From the IMG/VR virus record IMGVR_UViG_2740892488_000007: a stretch of DNA of 29,943 bases. One strand, given 5' to 3'. Numbering within the stretch: the first letter of the stretch is position 1; every line of letters begins with the position of its first letter. Below, one piece after another: positions 3,510 through 15,335 of the stretch. The notes beneath the pieces were generated by a model. The model saw only the letters and a program-made list of their open reading frames with translations. It was not told where the DNA came from and did not search any database. This DNA comes from a virus. Lineage: Duplodnaviria; Heunggongvirae; Uroviricota; Caudoviricetes. A program made the position numbers and the translations under genes.

Positions 3510-5775
3510 AGCCTCCGGGCGTTTTGTCCCTCCGTCAGCATTTGCCGCAGGCACCGGTAAGGCGTTTACCGGTGCTTATGCATGGAACGCGCCACGCGAG
3601 GCTGTCGGGCGCGAAAGACCCCTTACACGTGACGAGATGCGTCAGGTGCAAGGGGTTTTATCCACGATTAACCGCCTGCCTTACTTTTTGCGCTCGCTGT
3701 TTACTTCACGCTATGACTACATCCGGCGCAATAAAAGCCCGGTGCACGGGTTTTATTTTCTCACATCCACTTTTCAGCGTCGTTTATGGCCGCGCATTGA
3801 GCGTGTGAATCAGCGCCATGAAATGAACACCGACGCGTCGTTGCTGTTTCTGGCAGAGCGTGGCCATTATGCGCGTCTGCCGGGGATGAATGACAAGGAG
3901 CTGAAAAAGTTTGCCGCCCGTATCTCATCGCAGCTTTTCATGATGTATGAGGAACTCTGCGATGCCTGGGTGGATGCGCATGGCGAAAAAGAATCGCTGT
4001 TTACGGATGAGGCGCAGGCTCACCTCTATGGTCATGTTGCTGGTGCTGCACGTGCTTTCAATATTTCCCCTCTCTACTGGAAAAAATACCGTAAAGGGCA
4101 GATGACCACGAGGCAGGCATATTCTGCCATTGCCCGTCTGTTTAACGATGAGTGGTGGACCCATCAGCTTAAAGGCCAGCGTATGCGCTGGCATGAGGCG
4201 TTACTGATTGCTGTCGGGGAGGTCAATAAAGACCGTTCTCCTTATGCCAGTAAACATGCCATTCGTGATGTGCGTGCACGCCGCCAGGCAAATCTGGAAT
4301 TTCTTAAATCGTGTGATCTCGAAAACAGGGAAACCGGCGAGCGCATCGACCTTATCAGTAAGGTGATGGGCAGTATTTCTAATCCTGAAATTCGCCGGAT
4401 GGAGCTGATGAACACCATTGCCGGTATTGAGCGTTACGCCGCAGCAGAGGGTGATGTGGGGATGTTTATCACGCTGACCGCGCCGTCAAAGTATCACCCG
4501 ACACGTCAGGTCAGAAAAGGCGAAAGTAAAACCGTCCAGCTAAATCACGGCTGGAACGATGAGGCATTTAATCCAAAGGATGCGCAGCGTTATCTCTGCC
4601 GTATCTGGAGCCTGATGCGCACGGCATTCAAGGATAATGATTTACAGGTCTACGGTTTGCGTGTCGTCGAGCCACACCACGACGGAACGCCGCACTGGCA
4701 TATGATGCTTTTTTGTAATCCGCGCCAGCGTAACCAGATTATCGAAATCATGCGTCGCTATGCGCTCAAAGAGGATGGCGACGAAAGAGGAGCCGCGCGA
4801 AACCGTTTTCAGGCAAAACACCTTAACCGGGGCGGTGCTGCGGGGTATATCGCGAAATACATCTCAAAAAACATCGACGGCTATGCACTGGATGGTCAGC
4901 TCGATAACGATACCGGCAGGCCGCTGAAAGACACTGCTGCGGCTGTTACCGCATGGGCGTCAACGTGGCGCATCCCGCAATTTAAAACGGTTGGTCTGCC
5001 GACAATGGGGGCTTACCGTGAACTACGCAAATTGCCGCGCGGCGTCAGCATTGCTGATGAGTTTGACGAGCGCGTCGAGGCTGCACGCGCCGCCGCAGAC
5101 AGTGGTGATTTTGCGTTGTATATCAGCGCGCAGGGTGGGGCAAATGTCCCGCGCGATTGTCAGACTGTCAGGGTCGCCCGTAGCCCGTCGGATGACGTTA
5201 ACGAGTACGAGGAAGAGGTCGAGAGGGTGGTCGGCATTTACGCGCCGCATCTCGGCGCGCGTCATATTCATATCACCAGAACGACGGACTGGCGCATTGT
5301 GCCGAAAGTTCCGGTCGTTGAGCCTTTGACTTTAAAAAGCGGCATCGCCGCGCCTCGGAGTCCTGTCAATAACTGTGGAAAGCTCACCGGTGGTGATACT
5401 TCGTTACCGGCTCCCACACCTTCTGAGCACGCCGCAGCAGTGCTTAATCTGGTTGATGACGATGTTATCGAATGGAATGACCCGGAGGTCGTGAGGGCGC
5501 TCAGGGGCGCATTAAAACACGACCGGAGAACGCCAAACCGTCAGCAAAGAAACGGAAGCCCGTTAAAACCGCATGAAATTGCACCATCGGCCAGACTGAC
5601 CCGGTCGGAACGATTGCAAATTACCCGTATCCGCGTTGATCTCGCTCAGAACGGTATCAGGCCGCAACGATGGGAGCTTGAGGCGCTGGCGCGTGGCGCG
5701 ACCGTAAATTATGACGGGAAACCTTTCACTTATCAGGTCGCTGATGATTGGCCGGGATTTTTGTTACCCATTTGA
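3499..5775 (+). CDS. A: rolling-circle replication initiator (P2 gpA-like)
   Basis: Long ORF (758 aa from ATG at 3499; the track ORF opens at 3457). HUH-type motif PHWHMMLF and tyrosine pair GYIAKYISK. Length near the 761 aa of P2 A. Confidence 0.9.
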   Translation: MAVKASGRFVPPSAFAAGTGKAFTGAYAWNAPREAVGRERPLTRDEMRQVQGVLSTINRLPYFLRSLFTSRYDYIRRNKSPVHGFYFLTSTFQRRLWPRIERVNQRHEMNTDASLLFLAERGHYARLPGMNDKELKKFAARISSQLFMMYEELCDAWVDAHGEKESLFTDEAQAHLYGHVAGAARAFNISPLYWKKYRKGQMTTRQAYSAIARLFNDEWWTHQLKGQRMRWHEALLIAVGEVNKDRSPYASKHAIRDVRARRQANLEFLKSCDLENRETGERIDLISKVMGSISNPEIRRMELMNTIAGIERYAAAEGDVGMFITLTAPSKYHPTRQVRKGESKTVQLNHGWNDEAFNPKDAQRYLCRIWSLMRTAFKDNDLQVYGLRVVEPHHDGTPHWHMMLFCNPRQRNQIIEIMRRYALKEDGDERGAARNRFQAKHLNRGGAAGYIAKYISKNIDGYALDGQLDNDTGRPLKDTAAAVTAWASTWRIPQFKTVGLPTMGAYRELRKLPRGVSIADEFDERVEAARAAADSGDFALYISAQGGANVPRDCQTVRVARSPSDDVNEYEEEVERVVGIYAPHLGARHIHITRTTDWRIVPKVPVVEPLTLKSGIAAPRSPVNNCGKLTGGDTSLPAPTPSEHAAAVLNLVDDDVIEWNDPEVVRALRGALKHDRRTPNRQQRNGSPLKPHEIAPSARLTRSERLQITRIRVDLAQNGIRPQRWELEALARGATVNYDGKPFTYQVADDWPGFLLPI

Positions 5776-6035
5776 GTAAAAATACAGCGTGATTTTATAT
5801 GTCTTTGAATGGATTATGCGAAGCACCTCTAAGGTAGATGAGGAGCAATAGCGTGTTGAATCAGAAGGCTAAATTGTATTGAATCGTTAGCATGTAATTG
5901 AAGGCAGCTATTTGATTCGAGTCATAAAAGAGCATCTATTTCGGTTAATAAAACCATTGCGAGTGACTTTATGTCGAAGCATAATTCATCTCGAGCGAAG
6001 TCTTGCTAGTCTTTCATCGGATTGATGACGGGCGC

Positions 6036-6067
6036 AAAAAAAACCACCCTGGCAGGTGGTTTTTTTT
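6036..6067. terminator. bidirectional rho-independent terminator
   Basis: A8 (6036-6043), stem CCACC (6044-6048), loop CTGGCA, stem GGTGG (6055-6059), T8 (6060-6067). Works in both orientations; lies after gene A on + and 12 nt after the stop of the 37-aa ORF on -. Confidence 0.65.
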
Positions 6068-6079
6068 GTTTGAAGCATA

Positions 6080-6193
6080 CTAAAGAAAAATACTTACATG
6101 GATATTACTGACGTTTACTGACAAACCACTCGGACTACCATATGGATAGCCAAAGAGGGCCAGAACGAGAATGCAGTAATAGCACTTCTTCAT
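6080..6193 (-). CDS. 37-aa hydrophobic small protein (type I toxin-like peptide)
   Basis: ATG at 6193-6191 preceded by a perfect AGGAGG (reverse complement of 6197-6202), TAG stop at 6082-6080. Translation MKKCYYCILVLALFGYPYGSPSGLSVNVSNIHVSIFL: Lys-Lys N-terminus followed by a hydrophobic stretch. Terminator follows immediately. Too short to appear in the ORF track. Confidence 0.5.
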   Translation of the reverse strand: MKKCYYCILVLALFGYPYGSPSGLSVNVSNIHVSIFL

Positions 6194-6848
6194 ATCGCCT
6201 CCTGTAAGCAGAGGGCAATTTCCGCCGATATATGCGCTTCTAAGGCGGAGTGACTATTGAGCGAAGTCTTGCCCTGAAATAATGCTCTGTTTAAACGCAA
6301 AGTGATCTGGCATATCACCGAACAGAGGACCTGAACAACACAACATATAGTATGTCGTTGTTTCTGGTTGCATTTTATGTTGTGTAATACTGGTTTTGCA
6401 TCAAGGATGTTTGAGCTTTTTTTGATATAGCTCAAAGTAAAAAGCAGAGACTACGGATGATAAGGTCTTGAAAGCAATGTAAATTTTTTAAAGTTGTGAG
6501 TGGCTAGAAATGCACAGTTTCAATATGGCGGATTTAAACAAGTAATTAAAAATAGCGACATAAATTCCAATAAAATCATTAAGTTGCGTTTTCTGTGGAA
6601 ACTTCGGTGACTCTGAAATTTTCTTTTAGTGTCGCTGAGGTTTAACAACGCGCTGCGCAAGTAGTTAGTGTTTTTTTAACTCAATATTCTGATTTATAAG
6701 GTTTTTTATAAATCGTGGACTGGTTGCGCGTATTCATCTCGTGTTATCAGCAAAGATAAGCTCTATATGCAGAACGGAATGCATATATGATGTCGAAAAT
6801 GTTATGGGAAAACGTGGATTAGTGTTATAGTAATGGCTGAAAAACAGC

Positions 6849-6877
6849 CTTGACATAAAATAACAACTGTGATATGG
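6849..6877 (+). promoter_or_regulatory. putative sigma70-like promoter for the ImmA-like gene
   Basis: Perfect -35 TTGACA at 6849-6854, 17-bp spacer, weak -10 TATGGC at 6872-6877; about 40 bp upstream of the AGGAGG RBS at 6905-6910. Confidence 0.3.
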
Positions 6878-6915
6878 CTGTGCATACTTAACTTTTTTTA
6901 ACGTAGGAGGCAACC

Positions 6916-7401
6916 ATGAGCTATGCAGCTAAAAAACTGCTTGACCGCTATTGGGATCGCCGACTACCTGTCGATCCGTTTAAGCTTGCTAAAGCGTGGG
7001 GTGCTCGTGTTGAAGCACTTGAGGAATCGGCTTATAACAACGATGGGTTAAGCGGTCTGGCTGTCATCAAAAAGGGTGTCCATAGGATTTATTTTGATTC
7101 TAGTGAACATTCTAATCGTCAACGTTTTACTGTTGCACACGAGTTAGGTCATCATGTGCTGGGGCATACCCAGGACGGAGAGTACCATCGGGATAATGTC
7201 GGGAATTATTCAACAGGTGCTCGTGATTACCGTGAGGTTGAAGCAAACAAGTTTGCTGCTGAGTTGTTAATGCCTGAGTCTGCTATACGTCAATTGGTAT
7301 CCAGAGAAGGTATTGATAGCACTTTGAGATTAGCAAGCATCTTTAATGTATCAGAAGCCGCTATGCATTGGCGCTTAAAGAGCTTAGGAATGGCTTATTA
7401 A
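6916..7401 (+). CDS. ImmA/IrrE-family (HEXXH) zinc metallopeptidase, standalone
   Basis: 161-aa ORF with AGGAGG RBS and ATG at 6916. HEXXH motif HELGHHVLGH and downstream EVEANKFAAELLMPE, the signature of ImmA/IrrE-type peptidases. No HTH domain in this ORF. Confidence 0.7.
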   Translation: MSYAAKKLLDRYWDRRLPVDPFKLAKAWGARVEALEESAYNNDGLSGLAVIKKGVHRIYFDSSEHSNRQRFTVAHELGHHVLGHTQDGEYHRDNVGNYSTGARDYREVEANKFAAELLMPESAIRQLVSREGIDSTLRLASIFNVSEAAMHWRLKSLGMAY

Positions 7402-7430
7402 TTAGCCTTTAACTTTTAACCTGTTTAAAA

Positions 7431-7467
7431 TCACCTTTACGTTTGTACATGTAAGGGTGATTTTTTT
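7431..7467 (+). terminator. terminator-like hairpin / attenuator directly upstream of the membrane-protein gene
   Basis: Stem TCACCTTTA (7431-7439) pairs with TAAGGGTGA (7452-7460), with one G-U wobble; 12-nt loop; then T7 (7461-7467) running straight into the ATG at 7468. The only SD-like sequence (AAGGGTGA) is inside the 3' arm of the stem. Confidence 0.5.
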
Positions 7468-8067
7468 ATGGCTGATATTGATTTATCTGGACAGTCCCCA
7501 GAGCAAGGAACCACTCCTAAGGGCGATTCAGATCCTGATATCCTTATAAGGCGAGATAGACGGGATGGTATAGAGCGTAGAAGTATGCGATTAGTGCTCT
7601 CTGCCGTTGTGCTTTGTTTTGCTTGTACATTTCTATGGCAGGGGCTTAACTTTGCTTTGGCTGTTGGAAATGGCTTGCTGGAAGCGAAAAGCAGTATTGC
7701 CGCAGCGATAACACAAAAAGTAGATACACAAACTTGTGTTTCAGCAGAAAAATGTTCTGCTTTATCTTCGGATCCGAAGATGGCTGATGAGAGGATAACA
7801 CCATCTTCAGACACTAATAAAGTTAGAAAATCTATTTCTGGTTTATCCACCGATTGGTTATCGGCCAGTTCTCTAATAGCTATTGTTGCATTCATCCTTG
7901 GTGTGGGTTTAACTTTGCTTTTGACTCTTCTTAAATCAGCATTTCAACACCCGACAGATAAAGACTTTAGAACAAAGTCGACATCTAATACTATTGAGTT
8001 GGCCACGCCAATCAGTGAATTAATAATTGGTGTTCTGAATATAATTAAAGACAAACTATCTAAGTAA
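7468..8067 (+). CDS. small membrane protein with two predicted transmembrane helices
   Basis: 199-aa ORF. Charged N-terminus, hydrophobic segment LVLSAVVLCFACTFLWQGLNFALAV, polar middle, second hydrophobic segment LIAIVAFILGVGLTLLLTLL. AT-rich codon usage unlike the phage backbone. The start may instead be the internal Met at 7585. Confidence 0.55.
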   Translation: MADIDLSGQSPEQGTTPKGDSDPDILIRRDRRDGIERRSMRLVLSAVVLCFACTFLWQGLNFALAVGNGLLEAKSSIAAAITQKVDTQTCVSAEKCSALSSDPKMADERITPSSDTNKVRKSISGLSTDWLSASSLIAIVAFILGVGLTLLLTLLKSAFQHPTDKDFRTKSTSNTIELATPISELIIGVLNIIKDKLSK

Positions 8068-8109
8068 AGCATTAGTTGTGATTTTTTATTGGTTTTAGTG
8101 ATAATACAT

Positions 8110-8142
8110 CTCCAGTACTTATTGTTACTGGAGAGTATTTTT
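8110..8142 (+). terminator. rho-independent terminator after the peptidase / membrane-protein pair
   Basis: Perfect 8-bp stem CTCCAGTA (8110-8117) / TACTGGAG (8126-8133), 8-nt loop, followed by AGTATTTTT. Confidence 0.5.
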
Positions 8143-8351
8143 AGTCGTTTTATATTTTTAATGTTAGTGAATGATATTCACGAGAGTTCACGTTCGATGT
8201 GATGTAATCGGGGGCGTTAACACCAAGAATCGCAACGAGTAATCGGCAAATTAAAGCCTGCATTTGTTGTAATATGTCATCTCCATATTGATAATTGTTA
8301 ATAGTGGTAAAGCCAAGTGGTTGACCATGAAACATAGCTTCATGAAAGTTT

Positions 8352-9092
8352 TCATTGCGGATGTTTGTAATGTTTTTTTTTGCCTGTAACCCATGATGGT
8401 CGTGGTATTCCATAAGTTTTGCAGATCCACTTCAAGCGCCTGGAGTGATTTAGAGTCTTTTCTGTACACTTGTTCTTTTCTGCCCATGTTAAAGCAAAGC
8501 AACTATCCAGTGCCATATAAAGATACTGGAATTTTTCGAAGCTAAGGTATTGTGGGTTTTGGGATAAAAATAGTGCATGCACTATTGCTGCTATATTTAT
8601 TGGTGCGTGTTTGGTTTTTGTCTCGCTAGACATGTATTTGAGTGCTAATTCTATAACCTCTTTTTCAGAGCACTTGACCAGAATAAAGTCAGTTAATTTG
8701 CTGGGTTTTATTGGGGTTGCGTCTAAAAAACCGGCATCAGTAGTTGTTAATCTTATCCCTTTGAAAAAAGACAGACACCACACAGCAAAATTGAGAGTTT
8801 CTAGTGAAGATGTATTTTTTAATTTTAGTGAGTGTGTTTTGGGTAAGCCAAATACTCGTTGGCTAAAAGGCATTGTGGATATGCCTCCATTGAGGTTATA
8901 TACTTCTTGGTTTCCTGGGTATATCCAACCGTTAATAACATTTCTGTGATTGTTTATAAGATTTGTTTTTTCCGCTAGACCGGGTAAAGTAAGTAAAGAA
9001 AAATCATCAGTTTCAACGTTAACTTCTACTGGATAGTATCCAAACTCAGCTTCAATATCATTGGATTGCTGTTCGTCAACTTTACCTTGCAT
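8352..9092 (-). CDS. hypothetical protein (hotspot cargo); frame may continue to 8150 through an A9 tract
   Basis: 246-aa ORF with ATG at 9092-9090 and GGAG RBS. No motif I recognise. AT-rich. The C-terminus ...GKKKHYKHPQ runs through A9 on the coding strand (T9 at 8373-8381 on +); with A8 the frame would continue for 73 more codons to the stop at 8150. Confidence 0.5.
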   Translation of the reverse strand: MQGKVDEQQSNDIEAEFGYYPVEVNVETDDFSLLTLPGLAEKTNLINNHRNVINGWIYPGNQEVYNLNGGISTMPFSQRVFGLPKTHSLKLKNTSSLETLNFAVWCLSFFKGIRLTTTDAGFLDATPIKPSKLTDFILVKCSEKEVIELALKYMSSETKTKHAPINIAAIVHALFLSQNPQYLSFEKFQYLYMALDSCFALTWAEKNKCTEKTLNHSRRLKWICKTYGIPRPSWVTGKKKHYKHPQ

Positions 9093-9330
9093 ACATTGCT
9101 CCGGTCAAAAATAGGCTCGATAATTCTCGTAAGCCTATCATGTTCGCAAAGTATCCATACCTGTGGATTTTGTAAATTTAAGTTGATTTGTCATTAAATA
9201 AGCCGTTGCATGCAACAAGTGAATGTTTTTGCATGCGTCGGGGATGTCCGTTCAGGCTGCGTGCGGTCAGGACTGGTGCGGATCCATAGTATCTATGCAA
9301 CTGCATTAAAACCGCCCCATGAAGCGGGCG

Positions 9331-9349
9331 GGCGAGGCGGGGAAAGCAC
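9331..9349. other. cos site (19-nt cohesive-end sequence of P2-type phages)
   Basis: GGCGAGGCGGGGAAAGCAC matches the P2 cohesive-end sequence as I recall it; it lies about 170 bp beyond the 3' end of Q, as in P2. Confidence 0.65.
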
Positions 9350-9520
9350 TGCGCGCTGGCGGTGGTGCTGATTTTATTTTTTTCAGCGTCTGAGCGCGTC
9401 GTGATGGCGTTTAGATTGTTAGCCGGGGCGTTGGTGTGTCTGCGGGCTATTTTGTGCGGTGGTGAGCGTGTGAGGGCGTGATGGCGGGTTGTAAAAAAAG
9501 CCGCCCGCAGGCGGCGATAT

Positions 9521-10556
9521 TCAGCCGTTGTCAGTGTCCAGTGAGTAGTTTTTAAAGCGGATGACCTCCTGACCGAGCCAGCCGTTTATCTCGCGGATCC
9601 TGTCCTGTAGCGGGATAAGCTCATTGCGGACAAAGACCTTTGCCACTTTCTCAATATCACCCAGCGACCCGACGTTCTCCGGCTTGCCGCCCATCAACTG
9701 AAAGGGGATGCGGTGCGCGTCCAGCAGGTCAGCGGCGCTGGCTTTTTTTGATATTAAAAAATCGTCCTTCGTTGCCACTTCACTGAGCGGGATAATTTTG
9801 ATGCCGTCGGCTTTCCCCTGTGGGGCATAGAGAAACAGATTTTTAAAGTTGTTGCGGCCTTTCGACTTCACCATGTTTTCGCGGAGCATTTCGATATCGT
9901 TGCGATCCTGCACGGCATCGGTGACGTACATGATGTATCCGGCATGAGCACCGTTTTCGTAATACTTGCGGCGGAACAGCGTGGCTGATTCATTCAGCCA
10001 GGCAGAGTTAAGGGCGCTGAGATATTCCGGCAGGCCGTACAGCTCCTGATTAATATCCGGCTCCAGCAGGTGAAACACGGAACCGGGCGCGAAGGCTGTC
10101 GGTTCGTTGAAGGACGGCACCCACCAGTAAACATCCTCCTCCACGCCACGGCGGGTATATTTTGCCGGTGAGGTTTCCAGTCTGATGACCTTACCGGTGG
10201 TGCTGTAACGCTTTTCCAGAAACGCATTACCGAACACCAGAAAATCCAGCACAAAGCGGCTGAAATCCTGCTGGGACAGCCACGGATGCGGGATAAATGT
10301 CGAGGCCAGAATATTACGTTTGACGTAAATCGGTGAGCTGTGATGCACGGCAGCACGCAGGCTTTTTGCCAGACCAGTAAAGCTGACCGGTGGTTCATAC
10401 CATCTGCCGTTACTGATGCACTCGACGTAATCCAGAATGTCACGGCGGTCGAGTACCGGCACCGGCTCACCAAAGGTGAATGCTTCCATTTTCGGGGCGC
10501 TGGCGGTCATTTTTTTTTGCCGCAGGTTGCTGTGTTTTCCCTTTTTTCTTGCTCAT
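9521..10556 (-). CDS. Q: portal protein (P2 gpQ-like); N-terminal 15 codons out of frame at a T9 run
   Basis: 329-aa body ORF (9521-10510). An upstream ATG at 10556-10554 overlaps the P stop and has a GGAG RBS; it reads MSKKKGKTQQPAAKK and then falls out of frame at T9 (10510-10518). With T8 the protein would be 344 aa, the length I recall for P2 Q. Confidence 0.8.
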
Positions 10557-12328
10557 CAGTAAAACTCCAGAATGGTGGATGTCAGCGGGGTGCTGATACC
10601 GGCGGTGAGTGGCTCATTTAACAGGGCGTGCATGGTCGCCCAGGCGAGGTCGGCGTGGCTGGCTTCCTCGCTGCGGCTGGCCTCATAGGTGGCGCTGCGT
10701 CCGCTGCTGGTCATGGTCTTGCGGATAGCCATAAACGAGCTGGTGATGTCGGTGGCGCTGACGTCGTATTCCAGACAGCCACGGCGGATAACGTCTTTTG
10801 CCTTGAGCACCATTGCGGTTTTCATTTCCGGCGTGTAGCGGATATCACGCGCGGCGGGATAGAACGAGCGCACGAGCTGGAACACGCCGACACCGAGGCC
10901 GGTGGCATCAATTCCGATGTATTCGACGTTGTATTTTTCGGTGAGTTTGCGGATGGATTCAGCCTGGGTGGCAAAGTCCATGCCTTTCCACTGGTGACGC
11001 TCAAGTATTCTGAATTTGCCACCGGCCACCACCGGCGGTGCCAGCACCACGCATCCGGCGCTGTCGCCACGGTGTGACGGGTCGTAACCAATCCATACAG
11101 GGCGGGAGCCGAACGGATTGGCGGCAAACGGCGCATAGTCTTCCCATTCTTCCAGCGTATCGACCATGCAGCGTTGCAGCTCCTCGAACGGGAACACCGA
11201 CGCCTTGTCGTCAACAAATTCACACATGAACAGGTTTTTAAAATCGTCGGCGCTGTTTTCGCGTTTAAGCTGCTCAATGTCGAACAGCGTGCAGCCACCT
11301 TTCAGGGCGTCCTCAATGGTGACAATCTGCCGCCACTGGCCGTCCGCACAGAGAAGCCCACCGGCAAGGGCGTTATGACTGACGTCGATTTCCACACGTT
11401 CGGCGGCGCTGGCGCGTCCCCGGTTGAACAGTTCACCCGACCAGAACGGGTAGGCGTCGTGCGCCAGCGTGGATGGGGTGGAGAAATAGGTCGAACGCAG
11501 GTGACTCTGTGAGGCCATACCTGATGCCACCTTACGCAGTACCTGAAAATTCGGGATCCAGAAAATCTCATCGACGTACAGGTCGCCGTTATGGCTCTGT
11601 GCGGTGTTGGAGTTGGTGCCGAGAAAAATCAGTTTTGCGCCGTTATTGCCCAGGACAATCGGGTCACCGGTCAGGTCAACGTCAACCAGACGGGCAAAGG
11701 CGATGATGTATTCGCGGAACACATACGCCTGCGTTTTACTGGCCGACAGAAAAATCTGGTTATGACCGGTTTTCAGGGCGCGCAGCAGCGCCTCGCGGGA
11801 AAAATAAAACGTTGCGCCAATCTGGCGGGATTTCAGAATATCGCGGATGCGGTGCTCAAGCCCGGCGCGATACCAGTGCAGCTGATAGTCGAAAGACTGC
11901 TTAAAGAAAATCTGCTCCAGCTTTTCGATGGCCTCGTCACTGAAAAAATTCTTTTTCGGTTTGCGACGCCCGCCTTTGTTGCGGTTAGCGACGTTCGGAT
12001 TAAGGTCTGCCTCGTTGCCGGTCTGACTGTAGCGGTTGACCCGTGCCAGTCGTTCAATCTGGCGTCCGAGCAGGTCAATTTCCTTGAAGTCACCGCCGGT
12101 TTTCTGCGGTTTGATGATGAGCTGGGTCAGTCGCGCTTCCAGACTCATTTCGACACGGCTGATGGGGGCAACGCTGTCCCAGCCGTCGCGCTGTTTCCAG
12201 CTCTGCACCGTCGGGCGTTTCATCTGCAACATGGCGGCAATCTGCGGCACGGAAAACCCCTGCCAGTACAGCAGCGCCGCCTGACGACGCGGGTCGTGTA
12301 AAAGAGTGGTGTCTGTGGTGATGGTCAT
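10556..12328 (-). CDS. P: terminase large (ATPase) subunit (P2 gpP-like)
   Basis: 590 aa from ATG at 12328-12326 (the track ORF opens at a TTG at 12358). Divergent from O; length equals P2 P. Confidence 0.85.
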   Translation of the reverse strand: MTITTDTTLLHDPRRQAALLYWQGFSVPQIAAMLQMKRPTVQSWKQRDGWDSVAPISRVEMSLEARLTQLIIKPQKTGGDFKEIDLLGRQIERLARVNRYSQTGNEADLNPNVANRNKGGRRKPKKNFFSDEAIEKLEQIFFKQSFDYQLHWYRAGLEHRIRDILKSRQIGATFYFSREALLRALKTGHNQIFLSASKTQAYVFREYIIAFARLVDVDLTGDPIVLGNNGAKLIFLGTNSNTAQSHNGDLYVDEIFWIPNFQVLRKVASGMASQSHLRSTYFSTPSTLAHDAYPFWSGELFNRGRASAAERVEIDVSHNALAGGLLCADGQWRQIVTIEDALKGGCTLFDIEQLKRENSADDFKNLFMCEFVDDKASVFPFEELQRCMVDTLEEWEDYAPFAANPFGSRPVWIGYDPSHRGDSAGCVVLAPPVVAGGKFRILERHQWKGMDFATQAESIRKLTEKYNVEYIGIDATGLGVGVFQLVRSFYPAARDIRYTPEMKTAMVLKAKDVIRRGCLEYDVSATDITSSFMAIRKTMTSSGRSATYEASRSEEASHADLAWATMHALLNEPLTAGISTPLTSTILEFY

Positions 12329-12501
12329 GAATACCTCGCCGTGATGAATACACGGCAAGGCTACTGAGTCGCGCCCCGCGATTCGCTAAGGTGCTGTTGT
12401 GTCAGTGATAAGCCATCCGGGACTGATGGCGGAGGATGCGCATCGTCGGGAAACTGATGCCGACATGTGACTCCTCTAATCACTATTCAGGACTCCTGAC
12501 A

Positions 12502-13357
12502 ATGGCAAAAAAAAGTCTCAAAATTCTTTCGTATCGGCGTTGAGGGTGACACCTGTGACGGGCGTGTCATCAGTGCGCAGGATATTCAGGAAATGGCCGA
12601 AACCTTTGACCCGCGTGTCTATGGTTGCCGCATTAACCTGGAACATCTGCGCGGCATCCTGCCTGACGGCATCTTTAAACGTTATGGCGATGTGGTCGAA
12701 CTGAAGGCCGAAAAGATTGACGATGATTCGGCGCTGAAAGGCAAATGGGCGCTGTTTGCGAAAATCACCCCGACCGATGACCTTATCGCGATGAACAAGG
12801 CCGCGCAGAAGGTCTACACCTCAATGGAAATTCAGCCGAACTTTGCCAACACCGGCAAATGTTATCTGGTGGGGCTGGCCGTCACCGATGACCCGGCAAG
12901 CCTCGGCACGGAATACCTGGAATTCTGCCGCACGGCAAAACACAACCCCCTGAACCGCTTCAAATTAAGCCCTGAAAACCTGATTTCAGTGGCAACGCCC
13001 GTTGAGCTGGAATTTGAAGACCTGCCTGAAACCGTGTTCACCGCCCTGACCGAAAAGGTGAAATCCATTTTTGGCCGCAAACAGGCCAGCGATGACGCCC
13101 GTCTGAATGACGTGCATGAAGCGGTGACCGCTGTTGCTGAACATGTGCAGGAAAAACTGAGCGCCACTGAGCAGCGCCTCGCTGAGATGGAAACCGCCTT
13201 TTCCGCACTTAAGCAGGAGGTGACTGACAGGGCGGATGAAACCAGCCAGGCATTCACCCGCCTGAAAAACAGTCTCGACCACACCGAAAGTCTGACCCAG
13301 CAGCGCCGCAGCAAGGCCACCGGCGGTGGCGGTGACGCCCTGATGACGAACTGCTGA
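12502..13357 (+). CDS. O: capsid scaffold protein (P2 gpO-like); start region out of frame at an A8 run
   Basis: ATG at 12502 reads MAKK and then hits A8 (12507-12514) and stops after 13 codons. Removing one A gives a continuous 284-aa protein, the P2 O length. The body ORF is 12593-13357. Confidence 0.8.
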
Positions 13358-13415
13358 CCAGCGTCAGTCAGTCCGGGAAAACCTTCACGATTAACCCTTA
13401 ATTTCAGGAAAAACT

Positions 13416-14489
13416 ATGCGCCAGGAAACCCGCTTTAAATTTAATGCCTACCTGTCCCGTGTTGCCGAACTGAACGGCATCGACGCCGGTGATGTGTCGA
13501 AAAAATTCACCGTTGAACCGTCGGTCACCCAGACCCTGATGAACACCATGCAGGAGTCCTCTGACTTTCTGACCCGCATCAATATTGTGCCGGTCAGCGA
13601 AATGAAAGGGGAAAAAATTGGCATCGGTGTCACCGGCTCCATCGCCAGCACCACCGACACCGCCGGTGGCACCGAGCGTCAGCCGAAGGACTTCTCGAAG
13701 CTGGCGTCCAGTAAGTACGAATGCGACCAGATTAACTTCGATTTTTATATCCGCTACAAAACGCTTGACCTGTGGGCGCGTTATCAGGATTTCCAGCTCC
13801 GTGTCCGTAACGCCATTATCAAACGCCAGTCCCTTGATTTAATCATGGCCGGTTTTAACGGCGTGAAGCGTGCCGAAACCTCTGACCGCAGCAGCAATCC
13901 GATGCTGCAGGATGTGGCGGTCGGCTGGCTGCAGAAATACCGCAATGAAGCACCGGCGCGCGTGATGAGCAAGGTCACTGACGAGGAAGGGCACACCACC
14001 TCTGAGGTCATCCGCGTGGGTAAGGGCGGTGATTATGCCAGCCTCGATGCACTGGTGATGGATGCGACCAACAACCTGATTGAGCCGTGGTATCAGGAAG
14101 ACCCTGACCTTGTGGTGATTGTGGGGCGTCAGCTGCTGGCGGACAAATATTTCCCCATCGTCAACAAGGAGCAGGACAACAGCGAAATGCTGGCCGCTGA
14201 CGTCATCATCAGCCAGAAACGCATCGGCAACCTGCCAGCGGTACGCGTCCCGTACTTCCCGGCGGATGCGATGCTCATCACGAAGCTGGAAAACCTGTCC
14301 ATCTACTACATGGATGACAGCCATCGCCGCGTGATTGTGGAAAACCCGAAACTCGACCGCGTGGAGAACTACGAGTCAATGAACATTGATTACGTGGTGG
14401 AAGACTACGCCGCCGGTTGTCTGGTGGAAAAAATCAAGGTCGGTGATTTCTCCACACCGGCTAAGGCGACCGCAGAGCCGGGAGCGTAA
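13416..14489 (+). CDS. N: major capsid protein (P2 gpN-like)
   Basis: 357-aa ORF, same length as P2 N, in the O-N-M-L order. Confidence 0.85.
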   Translation: MRQETRFKFNAYLSRVAELNGIDAGDVSKKFTVEPSVTQTLMNTMQESSDFLTRINIVPVSEMKGEKIGIGVTGSIASTTDTAGGTERQPKDFSKLASSKYECDQINFDFYIRYKTLDLWARYQDFQLRVRNAIIKRQSLDLIMAGFNGVKRAETSDRSSNPMLQDVAVGWLQKYRNEAPARVMSKVTDEEGHTTSEVIRVGKGGDYASLDALVMDATNNLIEPWYQEDPDLVVIVGRQLLADKYFPIVNKEQDNSEMLAADVIISQKRIGNLPAVRVPYFPADAMLITKLENLSIYYMDDSHRRVIVENPKLDRVENYESMNIDYVVEDYAAGCLVEKIKVGDFSTPAKATAEPGA

Positions 14490-14492
14490 CCG

Positions 14493-15236
14493 ATGACGAG
14501 TCCCGCACAACGCCACATGATGCGGGTCTCGGCAGCGATAACCGCGCAGCGGGAGGCCGCCCCGCTGCGACATGCAACTGTCTATGAGCAGATGCTGGTT
14601 AAGCTCGCCGCAGACCAGCGCACACTGAAAGCGATTTATTCAAAAGAGCTGAAGGCCGCGAAAAAGCGCGAACTGCTGCCGTTCTGGTTGCCGTGGGTGA
14701 ACGGCGTGCTGGAGCAGGGCAAAGGTGCACAGGATGACATTCTGATGACAGTCATGCTGTGGCGTCTGGATACCGGCGATATTGCCGGTGCGCTGGAGAT
14801 TGCCCGTTATGCCCTGAAGTACGGTCTGACCATGCCGGGTAAACACCGCCGCACCCCGCCGTACATGTTCACCGAGGAGGTGGCGCTTGCGGCCATGCGC
14901 GCTCACGCTGCCGGTGAGTCTGTGGATCCCCGCCTGCTGACGGACACCCTCGAACTGACCGCCACGGCTGACATGCCTGATGAAGTGCGCGCAAAGCTGC
15001 ACAAAATCACCGGTCTGTTTCTGCGTGACGCTGGTGATGCCGCAGGGGCGCTGGCACACCTGCAACGTGCGACACAGCTCGACTGTCAGGCAGGCGTCAA
15101 AAAAGAGATTGAACGACTGGAGCGGGAGCTGAAACCGAAGCCGGAGCCGCAGCCCAAAGCGGCCACCCGCGCCCCGCGTAAGACCCGGAGCGTGACACCG
15201 GCAAAACGTGGACGCCCGAAAAAGAAAGCCAGTTAA
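14493..15236 (+). CDS. M: terminase small / endonuclease subunit (P2 gpM-like)
   Basis: 247-aa ORF following N, GGAG RBS; same length as P2 M. Confidence 0.8.
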   Translation: MTSPAQRHMMRVSAAITAQREAAPLRHATVYEQMLVKLAADQRTLKAIYSKELKAAKKRELLPFWLPWVNGVLEQGKGAQDDILMTVMLWRLDTGDIAGALEIARYALKYGLTMPGKHRRTPPYMFTEEVALAAMRAHAAGESVDPRLLTDTLELTATADMPDEVRAKLHKITGLFLRDAGDAAGALAHLQRATQLDCQAGVKKEIERLERELKPKPEPQPKAATRAPRKTRSVTPAKRGRPKKKAS

Positions 15237-15335
15237 CAACCGAATGCGCCCCGCGCCAGGGCGGCACGCCGGTCAGTGAGGGTGAATCACCTGACACTGC
15301 ACCGGCGTCCACCGCCCGACTTTTCAGAGGTGGTC

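Follow-up and report, generated by a model that had tools for sequence, protein, structure and literature searches.

The cargo slot of a P2-like prophage in the virus record IMGVR_UViG_2740892488_000007 (Caudoviricetes; the whole analyzed stretch of 29,943 nt is called the window below) holds two independent modules: a pair of genes encoding a peptidase of the M78 type and a protein with two transmembrane (2-TM) segments, and a single convergent gene, ORF313, encoding a protein with a HEPN domain. We see an even chance that both modules are abortive-infection-type anti-phage defences expressed from the prophage, with the 2-TM protein as effector and the M78 peptidase as controller in the pair, and with ORF313 acting as a HEPN RNase. 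The slot lies between replication gene A, which ends at 5775, and the cos site, beyond which come portal gene Q and terminase gene P. It is AT-rich (GC content 0.33–0.44 versus 0.52–0.59 in the flanks), and the A-to-Q region has been validated experimentally as an anti-phage hotspot in two studies (PMC9122126, PMC9519451); AT-rich cargo in this P2 hotspot was what an initial annotation, made from the window's letters and open reading frames (ORFs), had described. In P2 itself the slot contains orf91, tin and old, with old-tin read leftward from the cos side. According to a 2026 survey, in 19% of P2-like phages the main defence locus carries unknown genes only.

The observation made in the initial annotation is confirmed; its interpretation is partly supported. 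The ORFs that it listed, g1 (161 aa) and g2 (199 aa) of the pair at the coordinates of Table 1 and a convergent ORF of 246 aa at 8352–9092 (minus strand), were all found as given; treating the three genes as one cargo set did not hold, since many prophages have the pair but not ORF313, and many others ORF313 but not the pair. Homology to other prophages carrying the pair starts at 6796, and mapping of the junctions between loci with and without ORF313 showed that P2 backbone homology resumes at 9208. We saw the pair without ORF313 in loci L008–L011, L027–L029, L031 and L032 and in all non-P2 contexts; 35 of 44 viral loci and ∼52 Escherichia coli genomes had ORF313 but lacked the pair, and ORF313 was the sole A-to-Q cargo in four loci (L073, L074, L076 and L077). 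Among 5,426 complete E. coli genomes, 50 had the cassette (g1 and g2; module 1) and 99 had ORF313 (module 2), while the window-type versions of cassette and ORF313 were found in 47 genomes each. These equal numbers could be taken as a sign of one three-component system, with the pair regulating, for example, the HEPN nuclease; also, the same arrangement recurs in diverged form in one IMG/VR contig (IMGVR_UViG_3300009092_000028, loci L030 and L075), where the M78, 2-TM and ORF313 proteins are 88%, 62% and 49% identical to those of the window. Such a system is very improbable in our judgement, given the separate occurrences listed above, the convergent orientation of the genes and the bidirectional terminator between them; we do not think that the diverged trio outweighs the independence of the modules elsewhere.

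The first gene of module 1, g1, encodes a standalone peptidase consisting of the peptidase domain and a helical linker, with both the N-terminal helix-turn-helix (HTH) domain and the C-terminal GAF sensor domain absent. Residues 54–155 match the Pfam family Peptidase_M78 (PF06114) with E-value 3.8e-21 and 75.6 bits (the cut-off is 22), and the Pfam search detected no second domain in g1, hence no HTH. The active site is intact: the HEXXH motif (H75-E76-x-x-H79) and the motif E107..AN.FA..LLMP are invariant in 34 relatives, the invariant residues being H75, E76, H79, E107, A110, N111, F113 and P120. Among PADLOC models the best match was capP (E-value 1.1e-30, profile positions 8–153 of 242), the RmrA models matched the peptidase part only (E-values from 6e-17 to 5e-7), and the best matches in PDB were CapP (7t5t, E-value 7.6e-7) and IrrE. 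The short M78 family is broad. No HTH gene and no OLD-type ATPase were found among the ORFs and in domain searches of 5776–9520, and there was no ORF of the size or family of an OLD-type protein (ABC ATPase plus TOPRIM) between A and Q. Thus, both the description of g1 as an HEXXH ImmA/IrrE-type peptidase lacking an HTH domain or a repressor partner and the remark on the lack of an old-type ATPase, made in the initial annotation, were borne out.

The predicted cassette promoter was read from the sequence, and a consensus promoter scan made no call at 6835–6885. Its inverted repeat, GGCTG-N5-CAGCC (6835–6849), adjoins the −35 box and is unique in the window; the block is kept in all P2-type cassette loci, while further upstream the sequence diverges. 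The repeat may be an operator for a regulator encoded outside the slot.

The second gene, g2, encodes a predicted inner-membrane protein with hydrophobic segments at about residues 42–60 (TM1) and 136–154 (TM2), in agreement with the two helices proposed initially. Its layout comprises an acidic low-complexity N-terminal tail, a basic patch, TM1, a periplasmic loop of ∼65 aa with two cysteines, TM2, a linker and a C-terminal amphipathic basic helix. The N-terminal tail is net negative, the residues preceding TM1 are net +2, and the C-terminal tail is net positive; this charge distribution places both tails in the cytoplasm, on the same side as the protease. In the alignment of the family (A2), the TM2 helix, carrying the motif AFILGVGLTLLLTLLK, is the most conserved part and the periplasmic loop is the fastest-evolving one. 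A pair of loop cysteines, C..P.KC (window 7735–7755, residues ∼90–96), is kept in the enteric clade; the remaining loop and the N-terminal tail are of low complexity and vary quickly. Between the same loci, identity of the 2-TM proteins is 55–63% versus 84–90% for the proteases. The AlphaFold2 model has helices at 23–89, 116–159 and 180–198 and a mean confidence (pLDDT) of 66. The protein falls into phrog_8096 (function unknown); it matched no Pfam or NCBIfam family and gave no PADLOC hit at E-values up to 1. As the sequence family is narrow (58 clusters in a profile search of 1.84 billion representatives), a wider set of partners can be recognized by architecture only; a scan of genome contigs with the 2-TM alignment gave no confirmed locus.

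The two genes are strictly paired, which is the strongest result of the analysis. In all 16 viral loci recovered by the 2-TM query, the M78 gene was immediately upstream of the 2-TM gene, and the genes were neighbours in each of four additional look-ups as well; the order is the same on a Serratia chromosome, on an Enterobacter plasmid and in a Vibrio island. When M78 relatives at least 39% identical were considered on viral contigs, 37 of the 41 were followed by an ORF of 95–270 aa with exactly two TM-like segments, a feature shared by 24 of 555 (4%) other ORFs of the same size from the same loci. The gap between the M78 gene and its partner ranged from −17 to +68 nt, mostly from −17 to +13 nt, with −4 the most common value; in most lineages other than the enteric and Vibrio ones, the genes overlap by 1–17 nt. 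Behind each of the M78 genes of Pseudomonas aeruginosa, Klebsiella, Maridesulfovibrio and Cupriavidus there is a gene for a Pfam-less protein of the same build as g2 (acidic N-terminal tail, TM1, loop, TM2 and C-terminal amphipathic basic helix); in most relatives, the periplasmic loop is merely about 18 aa long. Upstream of the pair there are genes of various kinds (gpD, integrases, lambda P, nucleases), and S24 repressors are among them in 2 of 35 cases, so the pair appears to be a free-standing moron rather than a part of the immunity region; no consistent nearby HTH gene was found in 35 other loci. On plasmids the cassette is rare (3 of 72,556), which argues against a pure addiction module.

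In one case, a lambdoid prophage of P. aeruginosa (L088, 2507–4434), the pair lies directly downstream of an S24 (CI-type) repressor gene and shares its strand. This position right behind the repressor gene, as that of rexAB in lambda, implies that the pair is expressed in the lysogen. RexA and RexB of lambda are a cytoplasmic and a membrane protein, expressed in the lysogen and causing membrane depolarization upon infection; unlike g1, RexA is no protease, and unlike g2, RexB spans the membrane with four TM helices, so that homology is not expected.

Between g1 and g2 there is a stem-loop followed by a U-run. Its minimum free energy is −18.4 kcal/mol (z-score −5.6), and none of 200 shuffled sequences folded equally well; the sole Shine-Dalgarno (SD)-like sequence for g2, GGUGA, is inside the 3′ arm of the hairpin. 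The enteric and Vibrio loci that we checked share this design: the genes are 66–74 nt apart, a stable stem-loop with a U-run ends 3–7 nt before the ATG, and the only SD-like sequence is in the 3′ arm. Seven hairpins were folded in all (L108 is not counted), with z-scores from −3.5 to −7.6; their stems differ by compensatory changes, and the stem sequences of the Vibrio, L034 and Klebsiella hairpins are unrelated. An Rfam scan of 5600–9600 gave no credible RNA family. As a terminator or attenuator, the hairpin should cut most transcripts short behind the protease gene and hold down translation of those that continue. We take such a dosage bias against the membrane protein as indirect evidence that the g2 product is harmful.

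For module 1, we favour a toxin–antitoxin (TA)-like abortive-infection pair whose effector would be the 2-TM protein. The putative toxin would oligomerize via its highly conserved second helix and depolarize or permeabilize the inner membrane, and the cytoplasmic M78 protease would control it by binding or cleaving one of the cytoplasmic tails. Judged from ImmA/ImmR, IrrE/DdrO and CapP/CapH, the protease would most probably act on the linker before the C-terminal amphipathic helix. Since g1 has neither the HTH of RmrA nor the GAF sensor of CapP and IrrE, its partner should be the membrane protein rather than a repressor. The terminator hairpin burying the ribosome-binding site would keep the membrane protein scarcer than the protease in those enteric and Vibrio versions that we checked. 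The protease may either neutralize its partner or activate it.

The closest validated precedent of module 1 is RosmerTA, a resemblance to which had been suggested in the initial annotation. ImmA-domain proteins are validated antitoxins and a hub in TA networks (PMC10440598). RosmerTA, too, has a gene for an M78/ImmA-type protease beside an unrelated partner of variable family, and in Gordonia phage Kita the system is phage-encoded, with a membrane-localized toxin that depolarizes E. coli and with protection against some BASEL phages, a narrow range (PMC10440598). The likeness extends to the peptidase domain, matched by the RmrA models, and to the precedent of a membrane toxin. Strict membership fails: of the 357–400 positions of the RmrA profiles g1 aligns to ∼146–292 only, the N-terminal part with the Xre HTH being absent, and none of the RmrT models match g2. 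The RmrT families are heterogeneous, so a new RmrT-like toxin is still conceivable. Also, unlike in RosmerTA, the g1/g2 order is fixed with the protease first, and the enteric and Vibrio loci that were checked have a terminator hairpin between the genes.

The CapH/CapP, IrrE/DdrO and ImmA/ImmR systems share the peptidase fold and motifs with g1; the proteases of these systems are latent, are activated by stress and cut the cognate partner near its C-terminal oligomerization region. CapP and IrrE are built of a peptidase domain, a linker and a domain of the GAF sensor type; CapP is turned on by single-stranded DNA and cleaves its HTH partner close to the C-terminus. Unlike these systems, module 1 has no gene for an HTH substrate, no GAF domain (g1 ends at residue 161) and no downstream operon of a cyclic oligonucleotide-based antiphage signaling system (CBASS) or another system, and the partner is a membrane protein.

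Module 2 is the gene for a protein of 313 aa (WP_001161722.1, named ‘ORF313’ in P2-EC67). In the copy of the window, the T-run that ends at 8373 has one T too many, which breaks the gene so that it appears as two ORFs, 8352–9092 (246 aa) and 8150–8413. In all close relatives the gene is intact with 313 aa (E. coli S65EC and Salmonella phage MET_P1_103_31 are in the alignment); its family, PHROG 5937 (unknown function), has a profile of 312 positions, the first 240 of which are covered by the 246-aa ORF of the window. In comparison with E. coli S65EC the window has 13 single-base insertions over 15.5 kb, 9 of the 13 in A/T runs of at least 7; besides the insertion at 8373 that breaks ORF313, another one, at 10513, falls at the start of portal gene Q. 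Systematic homopolymer sequencing error looks like the source of these insertions, and we therefore treat the frameshift in ORF313 as probably a sequencing artefact, not a sign of a pseudogene.

Just downstream of the frameshift there is the HEPN catalytic motif, R245-N-E-N-F-H250 followed by E251, and this is why a reading of 246 aa has no HEPN motif. R245, N246, H250 and E251 are invariant in 35 homologues (44–100% identity). The convergent protein had initially been described as one of about 246–310 aa with no recognizable motif; the length was a fair estimate, while the lack of a motif did not stand, as both a HEPN fold and an invariant RNxxxH are present. In the AlphaFold model (pLDDT 84) the N-terminal half is alpha/beta and the C-terminal half is helical, with the four-helix HEPN fold; RNxxxH conforms to the HEPN motif Rx4-6H, typically R[NHD]xxxH. 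Profile and structure searches, which the initial annotation had recommended, gave no PADLOC match beyond the peptidase domain of g1, with no PADLOC model or NCBIfam family for ORF313; Pfam was silent for g2 as well as for four members of the ORF313 family at E-values up to 1, HEPN_Apea included, and Foldseek found no whole-chain match to ORF313 in PDB. The initial annotation had left it undecided whether the protein was Tin-like; it is not (BLASTP E-value 1.5 and hhalign probability 0.07% against P2 Tin). In other mobile settings, a solitary homologue of ORF313 in a P. aeruginosa island has an OLD-family ATPase as its neighbour, and another one is a moron between the portal and capsid genes of an Acinetobacter prophage.

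By its fold and motif, ORF313 is probably a single-protein RNase defence. In this reading, the N-terminal domain would hold the C-terminal RNxxxH nuclease inactive until infection, and the released nuclease would then cleave tRNA or mRNA, stopping translation. In ApeA, too, a single chain combines regulatory domains at the N-terminus with a HEPN nuclease at the C-terminus; as an anticodon nuclease, ApeA brings about abortive infection by cleaving tRNA (bioRxiv 10.64898/2026.01.26.701840). One homologue of ORF313 bears the UniRef name ‘Apea-like HEPN’; however, ApeA is about 580 aa long, mostly helical and of three domains, as opposed to the 313 aa and the alpha/beta N-terminal domain of ORF313. 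DARNA (PD-T7-3), a HEPN RNase defence from E. coli encoded by a single gene, cuts tRNAs of the host upon activation (bioRxiv 10.64898/2026.02.22.705581); it differs by the location of HEPN at the N-terminus (R117x4H122) in a 55-kDa monomer. P2 A-to-Q cargo with remote HEPN motifs has been reported as well (Vassallo 2022). By this analogy, ORF313 appears to follow the ApeA/DARNA logic, a sensor-triggered HEPN, in a smaller and differently built protein. Old-tin of P2 resembles ORF313 in occupying the cos side of the same slot and in being transcribed toward A; however, sequence and profile comparisons showed no similarity of ORF313 to Tin, and the slot of the window has no OLD-type ATPase.

Several points weigh against a defence role as proposed for the two modules. 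Formally, ORF313 is frameshifted in the window, and if the frameshift is real this copy is dead. Neither g2 nor ORF313 is matched by RmrT or other PADLOC models, g2 has no detectable homology to any known toxin, its AlphaFold2 model is of moderate confidence, and the TM segments were counted by a hydropathy rule, not by a trained predictor. The M78-containing protein of PD-lambda-2 is itself toxic (PMC9519451), and the roles in the pair could be reversed. A classical TA pair would also be expected on plasmids more often than 3 times in 72,556, and small 2-TM proteins of prophages can be superinfection-exclusion factors. Experiments on either module were not found in the literature searched.

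Superinfection exclusion would mean that the 2-TM protein blocks DNA entry or another envelope step, with the protease merely maturing or turning it over and with no cell death. We think it unlikely, even though a small inner-membrane protein encoded by a free-standing prophage moron would suit this role, its periplasmic loop evolves fastest and has two conserved cysteines in the enteric clade, and the lower identity of the 2-TM protein than of the protease is as expected for a surface contacting phage proteins. Exclusion leaves unexplained the strict co-inheritance of a cytoplasmic protease with an intact active site, the gene overlap, and the throttling by a terminator and an occluded SD; moreover, the loop shrinks to ∼18 aa in most relatives, and conservation is highest in the TM2 helix rather than on an exposed surface. 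Little probability, in our view, is left for a selfish addiction TA pair with no anti-phage role, with ORF313 as a HEPN toxin-like gene kept likewise or for RNA processing. The gene order is TA-like, with the protease first and the second gene overlapping or attenuated, ImmA domains do serve as hub antitoxins, and the modules sit on many kinds of mobile elements; still, plasmids, on which addiction modules thrive, hardly ever carry the cassette, the cassette is found in validated defence hotspots or beside defence genes, and ORF313 has no adjacent antitoxin candidate, is the sole cargo of several prophages and has a DefensePredictor score well above the cut-off.

The M78 protein could also be an ImmA-like anti-repressor or regulator cleaving a distant factor (the C repressor of the prophage, a repressor of another element or a host factor), with the 2-TM protein as a membrane sensor or anchor gating the protease. 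All characterized M78 relatives (ImmA, IrrE, CapP) cleave HTH repressors, capP is the best PADLOC match, an S24 repressor gene comes just before the module in 2 of 35 prophages, and the inverted repeat at the promoter suggests a DNA-binding regulator. However, the slot has no HTH gene, nor is one consistently near in the 35 other loci; the cassette is also found outside prophages, on the Serratia chromosome, the Enterobacter plasmid and the Vibrio island; and a distant element-specific substrate would not travel with a freely moving cassette, as the 2-TM partner always does. We consider this role improbable. The proposal that both modules are abortive-infection-type defences has a bolder form, which we put forward tentatively as something that may well prove wrong: the M78/2-TM pair would be a widespread unnamed prophage-borne immune family of Gamma-, Beta- and Deltaproteobacteria in which a minimal ImmA-type protease, devoid of DNA-binding and ligand-sensing domains, acts directly on a membrane pore-former instead of a repressor and infection is signaled via proteolysis of a cytoplasmic tail, and ORF313 would represent a new compact HEPN family with a novel N-terminal sensor fold.

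Calling the cargo uncharacterised, as the initial annotation did, is right in that no matching system was found in the libraries and papers searched; the genes have, nevertheless, been noticed before. Among P2 hotspot loci Rousset 2022 lists this exact genotype as ‘Peptidase_M78 + hypothetical + hypothetical’ (WP_000119270, WP_001161722 and WP_001389947); we did not find it among the additional tested systems of Table S2B of that work. In DefensePredictor, WP_001161722.1 is a predicted novel defence gene with a log-odds score of 9.7; we did not find it among the validated DS-named systems of Table S6, nor peptide strings of any of the three proteins in the supplementary files. Two candidates for ORF313 were rejected as different proteins, the ‘Putative HEPN’ pFR103 of Rousset and DS-40 of DefensePredictor, which is of similar length. 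In two 2025 preprints on modularity-based discovery, ImmA and M78 are not mentioned.

Neither module belongs to a described family, while their general kinds are known. What the analysis adds is that the HTH-less M78 protein and the 2-TM protein form a conserved pair of wide distribution, with a conserved attenuator hairpin, that ORF313 is assigned to HEPN, and that the slot is dissected into its modules. Should the pair be a defence, the ImmA/IrrE/CapP switch would be extended from cutting repressors to cutting or holding a membrane effector, an output that would be faster and independent of transcription, and a module of dozens of prophage lineages would get a name. The hairpin with its occluded ribosome-binding site offers a simple handle on dosage control of a putatively toxic membrane protein. 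ORF313, if its role is as proposed, would add to the few single-protein RNase defences a HEPN nuclease of 313 aa with an unrecognized sensor domain, small enough for work on its structure and trigger. About 1–2% of complete E. coli genomes, ST131 isolates included, carry one or both modules, which could affect host range in phage therapy.

Table 1. Positions of the modules and of other features of the slot and its surroundings in the window
Feature	Position	Strand	Remarks
Module 1 (g1 + g2 cassette)	about 6796–8140	plus	
Predicted cassette promoter	6835–6885	plus	Inverted repeat, perfect −35 TTGACA (6852–6857), TG-extended weak −10; read from sequence
g1, standalone M78 (ImmA/IrrE/CapP-type) zinc peptidase	6916–7401	plus	161 aa; SD AGGAGG at 6905–6910
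Intercistronic stem-loop with U-run	7427–7464	plus	Ends 3 nt before the g2 ATG
g2, predicted inner-membrane protein	7468–8067	plus	199 aa; two hydrophobic segments
Bidirectional terminator-like hairpin between convergent g2 and ORF313	8109–8134	both	Terminator scan
Module 2 (ORF313)	8150–9207	minus	
ORF313, N-terminal alpha/beta and C-terminal HEPN domains	8150–9092	minus	313 aa
HEPN catalytic motif of ORF313	8342–8359	minus	R245 to H250, then E251
ORF313 upstream region	9093–9207	minus	Travels with the gene (junction mapping)
Predicted ORF313 promoter, ATGACA-16-CAAAAT	9194–9167	minus	Promoter scan
P2 cos sequence	9331–9349		Sequence match
Portal gene Q	9521–10510	minus	Terminase gene P next on that side
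Insertion sites within 3619–15249 (examples)	6036, 6060, 6893, 8373, 9377, 9493, 9743, 10513, 12507		Versus E. coli S65EC
Bidirectional terminator in the 600-bp block	6035–6066		
Hydrophobic ORF in the 600-bp block	6080–6193	minus	37 aa; AGGAGG SD; one aa change in L008

Other M78-based arrangements were seen among the loci collected. On the Serratia chromosome (L012, 6463–8246), ∼1.8 kb downstream of the cassette, a 223-aa protein is encoded next to a 371-aa protein with HTH_3 and Peptidase_M78 domains; this neighbouring pair is RosmerTA-like, so that two M78-based modules stand side by side. In a set of viral contigs (L147–L175), short M78 relatives with identity of 37% or less had other partners downstream, either non-membrane proteins of ∼350 aa (L151, L153, L156, L164, L171 and L172) or distinct membrane proteins with one or two predicted TM segments, ending in ...KYLF (L147, L149, L150, L158 and L165). 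This suggests that the distant short M78 relatives swap partners in a hub-like manner, as described for RmrA.

We considered whether the 1.1 kb upstream of g1 is a part of the cassette and rejected this, as homology with cassette-bearing loci begins only at the module boundary. Just after gene A there is a 600-bp block (5876–6475) that is 92–100% identical to the L008 prophage, while the sequence around it and the M78 gene are merely 62–90% identical to L008. The block was found in 150 of 5,426 complete E. coli genomes, in more than 80 of them with other cargo behind it; in E. coli LY180, for example, it is followed by genes for an AAA ATPase and a hypothetical protein. Since the same block also precedes unrelated cargo, we place it outside the cassette. 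Neither Pfam nor Rfam gave a match to the block; with its terminator and hydrophobic ORF (Table 1), it could be a separate small-protein or RNA module.

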